Shown here in pieces: positions 2,346 to 3,426 of a DNA stretch of 40,033 nucleotides (positions within the stretch are counted from its first letter, which is position 1; each line of letters opens with the position of its first letter). Source of the DNA: a virus; the UHGV virus genome UHGV-0235137, one strand, 5' to 3'. A model generated the notes under the pieces. That model was not told where the DNA came from. It did not search any database and saw nothing but the letters and a program-made list of their open reading frames with translations. A program made the position numbers and the translations under genes.

Positions 2346-2423
2346 GGGAGATTGACGGTAATTGGTAAACCTACCATCCTTAGAAGTTGGTGTTTGAGGG
2401 TTCGAATCCCTTGTCTCCTACCA
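2346..2423 (+). tRNA. tRNA with anticodon UAG (Leu by anticodon) but short variable arm
   Basis: acceptor gggagat/gtctcct (with G-U pairs), D-loop with GG, anticodon hairpin ccatc-ctTAGaa-gttgg (one U-U mismatch), T-arm gaggg-ttcgaat-ccctt, A73, CCA at 2421-2423. Confidence 0.6.
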
Positions 2424-2430
2424 AATTAAT

Positions 2431-2506
2431 GCAGGTGTAGCAAAATGGTTATGCGGCAGACTTTTAATCTGACAGGCGATGGGTTCGAATCCCTCCACCT
2501 GTACCA
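2431..2506 (+). tRNA. tRNA-Lys (anticodon UUU), copy 2
   Basis: acceptor gcaggtg/cacctgt; body from D-arm to T-arm identical to copy 1 apart from two D-region substitutions; CCA at 2504-2506. Confidence 0.7.
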
Positions 2507-2512
2507 AACAAT

Positions 2513-2588
2513 GGGGTCATAGTTTATATGGTTAAAATTCGAGTTTTGCAAACTTGGGAACTGAGTTCAATTCTCAGTGACTCCACCA
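2513..2588 (+). tRNA. tRNA-Ala (anticodon UGC)
   Basis: acceptor ggggtca/tgactcc, anticodon hairpin cgagt-ttTGCaa-acttg, perfect T-arm ctgag-ttcaatt-ctcag, CCA at 2586-2588. Confidence 0.85.
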
Positions 2589-2594
2589 ATTAGT

Positions 2595-2669
2595 GCATCC
2601 ATAGTTTAAACGGGAAAATTACAGTCTTCCAAACTGAGGTTGAGGGTTCGATTCCCTCTGGATGCTCCA
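2595..2669 (+). tRNA. tRNA-Gly (anticodon UCC)
   Basis: perfect acceptor gcatcca/tggatgc, anticodon loop ctTCCaa, T-arm gaggg-ttcgatt-ccctc, CCA at 2667-2669. Confidence 0.85.
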
Positions 2670-2683
2670 AATTAAGGCGTGAT

Positions 2684-3097
2684 ATGAAAATATGTAGTAC
2701 TTGCAGAATACCAAAAGATGAAAGCTTATTCCATAAGAATAAGAGTAAAAAAGATGGTCTTCAAACACAATGTAAAGAGTGTGCAAGACTCCGTGATGCA
2801 AAGAGTTATCAAGGTAATAAGAAAAGGAAAGAAGCTATTAAAAATGCTCGTGAAGATAAGCGAGATTACAATAGAAACTTGACTAGAAGATATAAGGCTT
2901 GGTGTAAGTGCAAGATATGTGGTGAAAAAGAACCAGTTGCATTGGATTTACATCACACTGACCCTTATGAGAAAGACTCAAACCCAGCGTCACTTTATTC
3001 TTATTCCACAAAAAGGCTAAAAGCTGAAATTAGAAAGTGTATTGTTTTGTGTGCCAATTGCCACAGAAAAGTACATGCAGGTATCATAAAGATTTAA
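2684..3097 (+). CDS. HNH endonuclease (zinc-finger-containing, homing-type)
   Basis: 137-aa ORF starting 15 nt after tRNA-Gly; CxxC pairs and LHHTDP...CANCHRKVH motif; paralog of 1419-1766. Confidence 0.8.
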   Translation: MKICSTCRIPKDESLFHKNKSKKDGLQTQCKECARLRDAKSYQGNKKRKEAIKNAREDKRDYNRNLTRRYKAWCKCKICGEKEPVALDLHHTDPYEKDSNPASLYSYSTKRLKAEIRKCIVLCANCHRKVHAGIIKI

Positions 3098-3098
3098 T

Positions 3099-3175
3099 GC
3101 TGCTTTCGTATAATTGGCTATTACACATCCCTTGTAAGGATGGAAATGCAGGTTCAAATCCTGTGAGCAGCACCA
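3099..3175 (+). tRNA. tRNA-Thr (anticodon UGU)
   Basis: acceptor gctgctt/gagcagc, anticodon hairpin catcc-ctTGTaa-ggatg, T-loop ttcaaat, CCA at 3173-3175. Confidence 0.85.
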
Positions 3176-3271
3176 ATTCAGAGGTCAAGTGAAAGACCGC
3201 TTTGAGTCAACTGAAGACCGTAACAAATCCCACGGAGTTGAGTTAGCGGCACAACTTCAGACCTCTTTCAT

Positions 3272-3346
3272 ACTCGCTTAGTTTATATGGTAAAACATCA
3301 CCCTTACAAGATGAAGAAAAAGGTTCAAGTCCTTTAGTGAGTACCA
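3272..3346 (+). tRNA. tRNA-Val (anticodon UAC)
   Basis: acceptor actcgct/agtgagt, D-arm gttt-atatggta-aaac, anticodon loop ctTACaa, T-arm aaagg-ttcaagt-ccttt, CCA at 3344-3346. Confidence 0.8.
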
Positions 3347-3347
3347 T

Positions 3348-3426
3348 GTTCCAGTATCCCAATTGGCAGAGAGGCCAGACTTAAAATCTGTGTTATGTAT
3401 CGGTTCGAATCCGATATGGAGTACCA
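3348..3426 (+). tRNA. tRNA with anticodon UAA (Leu by anticodon) but short variable arm
   Basis: perfect T-arm atcgg-ttcgaat-ccgat, anticodon hairpin caga-ctTAAaa-tctg, acceptor gttccag/atggagt (6 of 7 pairs), A73, CCA at 3424-3426. Confidence 0.6.

Follow-up and report, generated by a model that had tools for sequence, protein, structure and literature searches.

Two short-variable-arm leucine tRNA genes in the tRNA array of a Felix O1-type phage belong to a known, widespread class, and one of them is a chimera

The closest described counterparts of the two leucine tRNA genes analyzed here are found in Felixounavirus and Mooglevirus phages (AF320576, NC_005282, SP22, Sf14, and others), which carry the same genes at the same site in the same array. 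For Felix O1 itself, three tRNA-Leu genes of 78 to 79 nt are listed, CUA, UUG, and UUA. A second phage group, the T5/BF23 type (Tequintavirus, e.g., OSYSP), has 77-nt genes with the D arm AUGG-AAUUGGCAUA-CAU, a GUUUU loop, A73, and U30.U40. Experimental use concerns the T5-type tRNA-Leu, and the Felix-type gene is known here from its sequence. Beyond phages, Streptomyces coelicolor has a type I tRNA-Leu(CAA) with a 5-nt loop alongside its long-arm isoacceptors (Fan et al. 2019, PMC6614811). The D arm UAGCCCAAUUGGCAGAGGC of the S. coelicolor and Actinomycetota type I genes also occurs in Felix UAA and CAA genes and in SP22-type UAG genes. However, the S. coelicolor tRNA has C48 and is served by its own LeuRS with a specialized leucine-specific domain, whereas the phage genes have U48 and would rely on an enterobacterial LeuRS. 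The animal mitochondrial tRNA-Leu(UUR) likewise combines a short variable loop with identity in A73 and A14 (PMC9976931), but it belongs to another lineage, is structurally relaxed, and has a mitochondrial LeuRS of its own. The Escherichia coli genes leuW (UAG) and leuZ (UAA) resemble the phage genes in A14, A15, G18G19, A20a, the 13.22 mismatch, U48, A73, and the anticodons. They differ in their arms of 13 and 15 nt, their anticodon loops UUUAGGU and UUUAAAA, their T loop UUCAAGU, and G1-C72.

We analyzed a 40,033-nt stretch of viral DNA (UHGV-0235137; here, the window), which is from a Felixounavirus, a Felix O1-type phage. Compared with Felix O1, the window has a minority allele of the UAG gene and a chimera of the CAA and UAA genes. 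ARAGORN and the Rfam tRNA model RF00005 placed both genes in a large array (Table 1), with ends exactly where the sequence-only reading had put them. The ARAGORN calls are 78 nt for tRNA-Leu(UAG), with the anticodon at 2381-2383, and 79 nt for tRNA-Leu(UAA), with the anticodon at 3382-3384. Against the curated gathering threshold of 29 bits, RF00005 scored 40.0 bits for the UAG gene (match 2347-2419) and 34.7 bits for the UAA gene (match 3348-3423), in each case over model positions 1-71 of 71. No other ARAGORN-called tRNA in the array scored as low; the rest reached 45 to 65 bits with the same model.

Table 1. Positions of the two leucine tRNA genes and of associated features in the window
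Feature	Position	Strand	Basis
tRNA gene array, 19 ARAGORN calls, with HNH-type endonuclease ORFs between	94..4621	+ (all)	ARAGORN, Rfam, annotations of homologous regions
Sigma-70-like promoter candidate, near-consensus, TTGACA-17-TATAGT, 11/12	1060..1088	+	Consensus match only
tRNA-Leu(UAG), UGUUU loop, A73, CCA	2346..2423	+	ARAGORN, Rfam, segmentation, database identity
tRNA-Leu(UAA), GUUAUGU, A73, CCA, chimeric	3348..3426	+	ARAGORN, Rfam, prefix/suffix identity, fold energy
Crossover zone CCAATTGGCAGAG, D loop, 13 nt, same in both parental Leu genes	3359..3371	+	Prefix/suffix test, Felix O1 map
Terminator-like hairpin and T run, directly after the last array tRNA	4784..4801	+	Consensus match only

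Segmentation of the two genes gave the anticodon loops CUUAGAA (UAG gene) and CUUAAAA (UAA gene), variable regions of 5 and 7 nt, respectively, the T loop UUCGAAU in both, and the discriminator A73 followed by an encoded CCA in both. The loops, the discriminator, and the spacing of 5 to 7 nt between anticodon stem and T stem all agree with what had been read from the letters. Neither gene has a variable arm of at least 10 nt forming a stem-loop, which defines class II. Both instead pair a leucine anticodon with a short loop of at least 5 nt including nucleotide 48, as in type I tRNA-Leu (loop-length criterion from PMC6614811), and both loops end in U48. The Tyr tRNA of the array (88 nt) and its Ser tRNAs (90 and 93 nt) are long-armed, again as claimed.

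The earlier reading had left room for its folds being wrong. Across 13 distinct homologues, each acceptor pair was formed in 13/13, by two to five kinds of pair, and covariation extended to the anticodon and T stems. Among the viral matches listed, at least 127 distinct tRNA-Leu genes with short arms, pairing was 94 to 100% in every stem, with up to six pair types. Because the stems covary across homologues, the cloverleaf is not a chance call. The possibility that the genes have another anticodon or a hidden long arm therefore has next to no probability left, and we rejected it: two independent tRNA finders agree on the anticodon, the covariance model matching both genes in full length, and every cloverleaf stem is supported by covariation. 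Two results pointed the other way. Plain minimum-free-energy (MFE) folding produced no cloverleaf for the window UAG gene, a T5-like UAG gene, the Felix O1 UAA gene, or the chimera, and Rfam set the acceptor register of the UAG gene one base off that of ARAGORN. A/U-rich unmodified tRNA sequences commonly misfold under MFE, and we do not count the former as evidence. As for the latter, only the register predicted by ARAGORN (G1.U72, A73, CCA) agrees with all homologues.

We then compared both genes with the determinants read by the host synthetase. According to a review, the identity set of E. coli LeuRS is A73, U8:A14, A15:U48, G18G19 (counted as pairing with U55 and C56), and A20a (PMC9976931), and, according to two sources, the long arm and the anticodon are dispensable for this enzyme (PMC9976931; PMC2377443). 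At the sequence level, U8, A14, A15, U48, G18G19, A20a, and A73 are all present in both genes, the three-dimensional pairing being predicted. The D arm of the UAA gene has the exact 17-nt format of leuW and leuZ (a 3-bp stem, the 13.22 mismatch, and A14 A15 Y16 U17 G18 G19 N20 A20a), and that of the UAG gene has this format plus one base. Among the matches listed for the at least 127 distinct short-arm viral genes, A73, U8, and U48 were each found in 127/127; among those with a 17-nt D arm (n = 125, again matches listed), A20a was found in 124/125 and 13.22 was unpaired in 122/125. None of A73, U8, U48, and A20a was built into the pattern used to find these genes.

These observations bear on whether the genes, despite leucine anticodons, could accept a different amino acid or serve as uncharged decoys, so that CUA and UUA decoding would be recoded or perturbed. 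Overall they are shaped like class I tRNAs, disagreement between anticodon and identity is known from natural tRNAs elsewhere (PMC7609411; PMC3333845), and the UAA gene has A35, A36, and A73 in common with tRNA-Phe. We nevertheless regard this as very improbable. A switch of identity would be marked by G3.U70 (Ala), a long arm with G73 (Ser), G-1/C73 (His), or particular anticodon bases (Val, Ile, Lys, Phe, Arg, and Met), and by the published identity rules (PMC9976931) such determinants of other synthetases are missing from both genes. Pair 3-70 is G3-C70 in one and U3-A70 in the other; G73 and a long arm are absent from both, as are the anticodon bases needed by ValRS, IleRS, LysRS, PheRS (G34), ArgRS, and MetRS. 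The short-arm class itself is invariant in A73, A15:U48, and A20a (the last in 124/125 of the matches listed).

Isotype models pointed to leucine as well. The published tRNAscan-SE isotype scores for the Leu tRNAs of phage Sf14 are highest for Leu (PMC12482277), although for Sf14 Leu_TAG the Ile2 and Lys models come close behind (Leu 67.4, Ile2 65.7, and Lys 63.4; PMC12482277), and these scores apply to relatives, the window UAG allele lying outside their cover. The CAA gene of Sf14 has the same sequence as one parent of the chimera, and the Sf14 UAA gene matches the other at 78/79 positions. When we masked the anticodon, removed the variable loop, and applied our own isotype hidden Markov models (HMMs), Leu models gave the best scores for both window genes. 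A Leu HMM trained only on long-arm Leu tRNAs placed them 6 to 7 bits above the best non-Leu model. The HMM test is biased, as the pattern used to collect the long-arm training set is one that the window genes also match.

Evidence on function comes from a T5-type relative. Our own tRNA scan of OSYSP (MF402939.1) gave two tRNA-Leu genes in all, each 77 nt long and short-armed. The primary paper on the viral tRNA-Leu of OSYSP is reportedly Nyerges et al. 2023. An OSYSP tRNA-Leu with its anticodon swapped to CGA reportedly reads TCG as leucine in E. coli; a T5-type member would insert leucine in vivo (PMC13596443). The link between the engineered tRNA and a short-arm gene runs through the accession number and our scan. 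On the other side, in vitro tests saw no charging by E. coli LeuRS of the type I tRNA-Leu(CAA) of S. coelicolor, a substrate with C48, not U48, and the leucine-specific domain of the E. coli enzyme is said to favor large variable loops (PMC6614811).

Leucine is the best reading of the amino acid on both genes, and we infer leucylation itself from the sequences and by analogy. As its alternative to wrong folds, the sequence-only reading had offered unusual tRNAs of uncertain charging identity. They do depart from the textbook class II shape, but the uncertainty is unsupported, since the full LeuRS identity set is kept and the OSYSP short-arm tRNA-Leu is reported to insert leucine. Both genes are probably phage type I leucine tRNAs charged by the host LeuRS, a conclusion that draws on the observed fold, conservation, identity elements, families, and codon bias. 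Each would be a tRNA-Leu body in which an arm of 13 to 15 nt has been swapped for 5 to 7 nt. [quoted passage not shown] The UAG tRNA would then read CUA and related CUN codons, and the UAA tRNA would read UUA and UUG.

Codon usage is in keeping with such a role. In the open reading frames of the window, the relative synonymous codon usage (RSCU) is 1.71 for TTA and 0.71 for CTA, compared with host means of 1.06 and 0.43 (PMC12482277). Since CUA- and UUA-type codons are used more by this phage, at 39% G+C, than by its host, the tRNAs may supplement host tRNA-Leu; during infection they would top it up or replace it. Against recoding, TTA and CTA codons in conserved phage proteins align with Leu or other hydrophobic residues of distant homologues at about the same rate as the remaining Leu codons, a sanity check that covers 9 to 24 codons per class.

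The short-arm form is widespread. Felix O1 and hundreds of its relatives have the same genes, annotated as tRNA-Leu. In 41 loci of the Felix and T5 types, all 80 tRNA-Leu genes are 77 to 79 nt long, with Ser genes of 89 to 93 nt and Tyr genes of 88 nt. Pattern scans of IMG/VR for short and for long spacing each yielded at least 120 rows. The at least 127 distinct short-arm genes mentioned above lie in viral metagenome contigs, and the form is abundant in phages of many hosts. Many Actinomycetota chromosomes also have it, as single chromosomal genes. About a fifth of the viral loci examined (40/179) carry long and short forms together. In the literature that we searched, we found no explicit description of a short-arm tRNA-Leu of phages, though one may exist beyond the searchable texts. 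The pair in the window is real and ordinary, of a class already known, widespread, and annotated.

It is conceivable, though unlikely, that loss of the arm is an adaptation rather than a neutral simplification and hides phage tRNA-Leu, still a leucine acceptor, from nucleases that read class II tRNAs or host-type anticodon loops, whether these serve host defense or the host shut-off by the phage itself. Nucleases specific for type II tRNAs exist (human SLFN11/12; PMC13191261), bacterial Schlafens act as tRNases against phages, T5-like ones included (PMC12330615), and phage tRNAs are reported to evade anticodon nucleases by loop changes (PMC10264068; PMC13596443). The phage loop CUUAGAA differs from the host loop UUUAGGU at three positions, and the abundance of the class across phages of many hosts would fit. 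However, no arm-dependent tRNA-Leu nuclease is known in enterobacteria, and the bacterial Schlafen that has been studied cleaves bacterial and viral tRNAs alike, arm-dependent cleavage not being shown there (PMC12330615). Ser and Tyr tRNAs in the same arrays retain their long arms, and long and short tRNA-Leu forms share viral loci. The single chromosomal genes of Actinomycetota likewise do not suggest a counter-defense specific to phages. We consider it quite doubtful that the arm loss is a selected counter-defense, a private leucine-decoding channel that escapes a hypothetical arm-reading nuclease of bacterial or phage origin while LeuRS charges type I substrates efficiently in vivo. If it were so, enterobacterial LeuRS would charge type I tRNAs well in vivo, contrary to the in vitro picture based on S. 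coelicolor.

The two genes belong to different subfamilies. With G13.A22, the UAG gene is an ordinary T5-like gene. It fits the subfamily pattern AYGG-AAUUGGNAUA-CRU ... GUUUU ... A73, shares the T5/BF23-type plan, and is 83.8% identical to the BF23/T5-like tRNA-Leu over bases 5-78. It differs from that type in G1.U72 instead of G1-C72 and in one extra D-arm base; the D arm is 18 nt long, with its stem shifted or mismatched, and the anticodon stem has the U30.U40 mismatch. The allele is a minority one, with the T5-like anticodon stem CCAUC/GUUGG where Felix O1 has UCUCG/CGAGA. It is 100% identical in 71 phage records. One record tags a homologue as "tRNA-Pseudo-TAG." A search of 5,426 E. coli genomes gave no match to the phage UAG gene, which excludes a close host or prophage copy there and says little beyond that.

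The UAA gene belongs to the other Leu subfamily (C13.A22), not to the T5 type. A prefix/suffix identity test assigned its bases 1-24 to the Felix O1 Leu(CAA) gene and its bases 12-79 to the Felix O1 Leu(UAA) gene. The crossover zone marks where 930 bp have been deleted in comparison with Felix O1, a loss that took the 3' part of Leu(CAA), Arg(ACG), ORF109, Gln(UUG), and the 5' part of Leu(UAA). The flanks are 99/100 identical to Felix O1 upstream of CAA and 97/100 identical downstream of UAA. Judging from these parental segments, the UAA gene is a by-product of a deletion that arose when Leu(CAA) recombined with its paralogue Leu(UAA). This chimeric origin, which the sequence-only reading had missed, is a new detail of our analysis.

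The chimera has the mismatches G7.A66 and C11.A24 and a weakened pair 2-71, and because two stem pairs are lost, it may work poorly or not at all. It is thus possible, and we hold the idea tentatively, that the UAA gene is a nonworking deletion scar and that the UAG gene and the intact parental genes elsewhere are the functional ones. The predicted cloverleaf energy of -2.0 kcal/mol, compared with -15.3 and -17.7 kcal/mol for the parents, is consistent with this, as is its place at the bottom of the array in Rfam score. The identical junction occurs, besides the window, only in IME338, Si3, and FM4b, and the junction is rare overall (4 to 5 of about 255 records). In FG1m, the same CAA/UAA deletion arose independently by a crossover in the T loop, and its product is not annotated as a tRNA. 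However, the chimera is still called a tRNA by both ARAGORN and Rfam, and it keeps A73, U8:A14, A15:U48, G18G19, and A20a along with intact anticodon and T arms. IME338 has the gene with 100% identity to the window, and Si3 and FM4b annotate it as tRNA-Leu. Nearest-neighbor energies are blind to tertiary contacts and base modifications, and mismatches are tolerated by other phage tRNAs.

Together, the two genes correct a textbook generalization on bacterial tRNA-Leu; they reveal no new system. Short-arm tRNA-Leu extends beyond mitochondria and one Streptomyces species and appears widespread in Actinomycetota; in the coliphage loci that we examined, of the Felix O1 and T5 types, it is the only tRNA-Leu form, and it is common in viral metagenomes. 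Annotation pipelines should spare it pseudo-tRNA flags. The class bears on claims about which LeuRS enzymes take type I substrates and matters for recoded, "firewalled" strains that employ viral tRNA-Leu. The chimera illustrates the trimming of phage tRNA arrays by recombination between paralogous genes. As to expression signals, promoter-like sites in the window total no more than in shuffled sequence. The near-consensus promoter candidate of Table 1 lies upstream of the block that holds both Leu genes.

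ARAGORN called 19 tRNA genes in the array, all on the + strand at 94-4621 of the window. Its calls for the tRNA-Leu(UAG) and tRNA-Leu(UAA) genes coincide exactly with the coordinates in the sequence-only reading. The UAG gene was segmented as GGGAGAU UG ACGGUAAUUGGUAAACCU A CCAUC CUUAGAA GUUGG UGUUU GAGGG UUCGAAU CCCUU GUCUCCU A CCA, and the UAA gene as GUUCCAG UA UCCCAAUUGGCAGAGAG G CCAGA CUUAAAA UCUGU GUUAUGU AUCGG UUCGAAU CCGAU AUGGAGU A CCA. By this segmentation the variable region has 5 nt in the UAG gene and 7 nt in the UAA gene, and both genes carry an A73 discriminator and an encoded CCA. 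The short variable arms noticed on these two leucine-anticodon tRNAs are thus real, and A73 and the anticodon loops CUUAGAA and CUUAAAA stand as they were first read. So do the long arms of the Tyr (88 nt) and Ser (90 and 93 nt) tRNAs of the array in the ARAGORN calls. A covariance-model check with the Rfam tRNA model matched both genes, over the full length of the model, above the gathering score of 29 bits (UAG, 40.0 bits; UAA, 34.7 bits); the remaining ARAGORN-called array tRNAs score 45-65 bits on the same model.

Coordinates in the window of the two tRNA-Leu genes and the recurring spacer motif
Feature	Position	Strand	Remark
tRNA-Leu(tag)	2346-2423	+	78 nt, ARAGORN
tRNA-Leu(taa)	3348-3426	+	79 nt, ARAGORN
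Spacer motif CAGAAGACCGU / ACGGUCUGG and variants	24-35, 76-84, 438-449, 516-525, 531-541, 653-661, 3204-3213		

The first 8 kb of the window matches 352 phage records. Because the best matches are Escherichia phage SP22 (96.2%) and Salmonella phage Felix O1 (95.1%), the window belongs to Felixounavirus. Three tRNA-Leu genes of 78, 78, and 79 nt, for CUA, UUG, and UUA, are annotated in the Felix O1 record, and likewise in SP22. A 100% identical copy of the UAG gene occurs in 71 records, the majority of which annotate it as tRNA-Leu. Thus, these phage tRNA-Leu genes, which are of the type I (short-variable-loop) kind, are known and annotated: they had already been deposited and named.

Comparison with Felix O1 showed that the UAA gene shares its 5' 24 nt exactly with Felix O1 Leu(CAA) and its 3' 68 nt exactly with Felix O1 Leu(UAA). 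The two stretches overlap in CCAAUUGGCAGAG (3359-3371), a D-loop segment common to the two paralogues. Upstream of the gene, the flank agrees at 99/100 positions with the DNA preceding Felix O1 Leu(CAA); downstream, it agrees at 97/100 with the DNA following Felix O1 Leu(UAA). Relative to Felix O1, the window lacks 930 bp. On the Felix O1 map, this segment begins within Leu(CAA), runs through Arg(ACG), ORF109, and Gln(UUG), and ends within Leu(UAA). These comparisons indicate that the UAA gene is a recombination product, which is among the only new points of our analysis. The chimera has the mismatches G7.A66 and C11.A24, as well as U2.G71 replacing C2-G71. Its cloverleaf is predicted to fold at -2.0 kcal/mol, compared with -15.3 and -17.7 kcal/mol for those of its parents. 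Its junction was found elsewhere only in IME338, Si3, and FM4b. Salmonella phage FG1m (L407 388-471) has an independent Leu(CAA)/Leu(UAA) deletion whose crossover lies in the T loop common to both genes, GGUUCGAAUCCG; the product is a chimera with a CAA anticodon, which its annotators did not call as a tRNA. As the two deletions are independent, recombination between paralogous tRNA genes recurs in this array.

The sequence-only reading had left the charging identity of both genes uncertain. According to reviews, leucine identity in E. coli consists of A73 and the tertiary core U8:A14, A15:U48, G18G19, and A20a, while the anticodon and long arm are dispensable and armless variants are still active (PMC9976931; PMC2377443). 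All of these identity bases are present in the UAG and UAA genes. The D arm of the UAA gene has the 17-nt format of the long-arm E. coli leuW and leuZ tRNAs, whereas that of the UAG gene has one base more. Among at least 127 distinct short-arm viral genes with an encoded CCA, A73, U8, and U48 were each found in 127/127, and A20a in 124/125 of those with a 17-nt D arm; none of these four bases was specified by the search pattern. G3.U70, G73, and the anticodon bases used by other synthetases are absent from both segmented sequences. For Mooglevirus Sf14, tRNAscan-SE isotype scores put Leu at the top for its three Leu tRNAs (PMC12482277). Of the chimera's two parents, one is identical to the Sf14 CAA gene and the other matches the Sf14 UAA gene at 78/79 positions, whereas the Sf14 UAG gene is an allele other than the window's. 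We also built isotype HMMs after masking the anticodon and removing the variable loop, in a model set without Asp. Leu models were best for both window genes, including a model from long-arm genes only, although the collection of the training set biases this test; control tRNAs had their own isotype best in 8/12 cases and second in 3 more. Therefore, with the full E. coli leucine identity set in both genes, an uncertain charging identity is not supported.

In recoded E. coli, a "bacteriophage-derived (GenBank MF402939.1) tRNA-Leu(CGA)" is reported to read TCG as leucine (PMC13596443). That accession is the T5-like phage OSYSP, and a whole-genome tRNA scan of OSYSP found two tRNA-Leu genes only, both 77-nt and short-arm. 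Since every OSYSP tRNA-Leu is short-arm, a member of this class is reportedly charged with leucine in E. coli irrespective of its anticodon; the link is made by the accession number and the tRNA scan. However, the type I tRNA-Leu(CAA) of S. coelicolor is not charged by E. coli leucyl-tRNA synthetase in vitro; it has C48, whereas the window genes have U48 (PMC6614811).

ARAGORN made 80 tRNA-Leu calls in 41 loci of Felix-type, T5-type, and related phages; every one is 77-79 nt long, with Ser at 89-93 nt and Tyr at 88 nt. The window UAG gene is ~84% identical to tRNA-Leu of T5/BF23-like phages. Further short tRNA-Leu genes occur in a Seunavirus, an Aeromonas Demerecviridae phage, Xanthomonas phage X1, Rhodococcus phage Dorin, and Rhizobium phage P106B; X1 has an 86-nt UAG and a 77-nt CAG gene with D arms of the same type. 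IMG/VR pattern scans gave at least 120 matches each for short and long spacing. Among the matches listed, the 300 ARAGORN tRNA-Leu genes in 198 fetched loci are bimodal in length (72-80 nt, peak 77; 81-93 nt, peak 85), and Ser and Tyr tRNAs remain long in these loci. In a scan of one genome per prokaryotic species, most of the matches listed are single, stand-alone tRNA-Leu(UAA/CAA) genes of 74-78 nt whose variable loops are short (L287-L366), the listed genera being Nocardia, Rhodococcus, Gordonia, Mycobacterium, Corynebacterium, Arthrobacter, Bifidobacterium, and Streptomyces. The D arm of these genes, UAGCCCAAUUGGCAGAGGC, almost matches that of the Felix UAA/CAA and SP22-type UAG genes. The scan points to type I tRNA-Leu as a regular isoacceptor in many Actinomycetota genera rather than a Streptomyces peculiarity. 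One subfamily is T5-like, with G13.A22 and a GUUUU loop, and includes the window UAG gene; the other is actinobacterial-like, with C13.A22 and an NCAGU-type loop, and includes the UAA gene. That the class is far wider than the lone paper on bacterial type I tRNA-Leu implies is a new point.

The window has a G+C content of 39.3%, and the RSCU values of its ORFs (TTA, 1.71; CTA, 0.71) are near those of Sf14 and exceed the host means of 1.06 and 0.43 (PMC12482277). We aligned the terminase, the portal, and one more conserved protein with 25-42%-identical homologues; TTA/CTA codons fell opposite Leu or hydrophobic residues at about the same rate as the other Leu codons, in small numbers. Ordinary leucine decoding that supplements the host tRNAs fits the codon data. 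It is possible that loss of the arm evades putative arm-dependent nucleases.

The UAG slot shows cassette-like mosaicism, with at least three alleles in one Felixounavirus array position (2346-2423 in the window; L001 3463-3540; L002 3430-3506): the window type, with a CCAUC/GUUGG anticodon stem as in T5; the Felix O1 type, with UCUCG/CGAGA; and an unrelated 77-nt SP22/wV8/Sf14 type. Loci L022 and L014 hold intermediate recombinants. Sites 2377/2387 of the window, 3693-3769 of OSYSP (L004), and 1501-1577 of L045 were grouped as one side observation. ORFs 1374-1766 and 2684-3097 (+), between tRNA blocks, have Cys-rich and His motifs, and their homologues in SP22 and Felix O1 bear HNH or phage endonuclease annotations; the ORFs probably encode homing endonucleases that promote array mosaicism.

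Rfam reports a tRNA at 1322-1400 (+; 31.7 bits) that ARAGORN missed. It has the acceptor CGGGGCG/CGCCUCG, A73, CCA, and intact UCU (Arg) anticodon and T arms, with just 7 nt in place of the D arm and 23 nt in the variable position. It overlaps the start of the HNH-type ORF 1374-1766, and a normal 77-nt Arg(UCU) occupies its array position in other Felixounaviruses. Neither program called the tRNA-like element at 1903-1988 (+). In it, an 8-bp helix resembling an acceptor stem (AUGGGACG/CGUCCCAU) precedes GCCA, and GGGGUUCAACUCCUC resembles a T arm; the element may be a decayed tRNA gene, and some related records annotate a "tRNA-OTHER". Fragments at 553-650 (+), comprising a T-arm piece (553-603; partial Rfam match, 22 bits) and a 5'-half-like stretch, GACGUCGAGUUGGUGUAAUGGUAGCAC, at ~612-638, look like remnants of deleted tRNA genes. 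The short motif listed in the table recurs in spacers flanking tRNA blocks and may be a processing or recombination signal.
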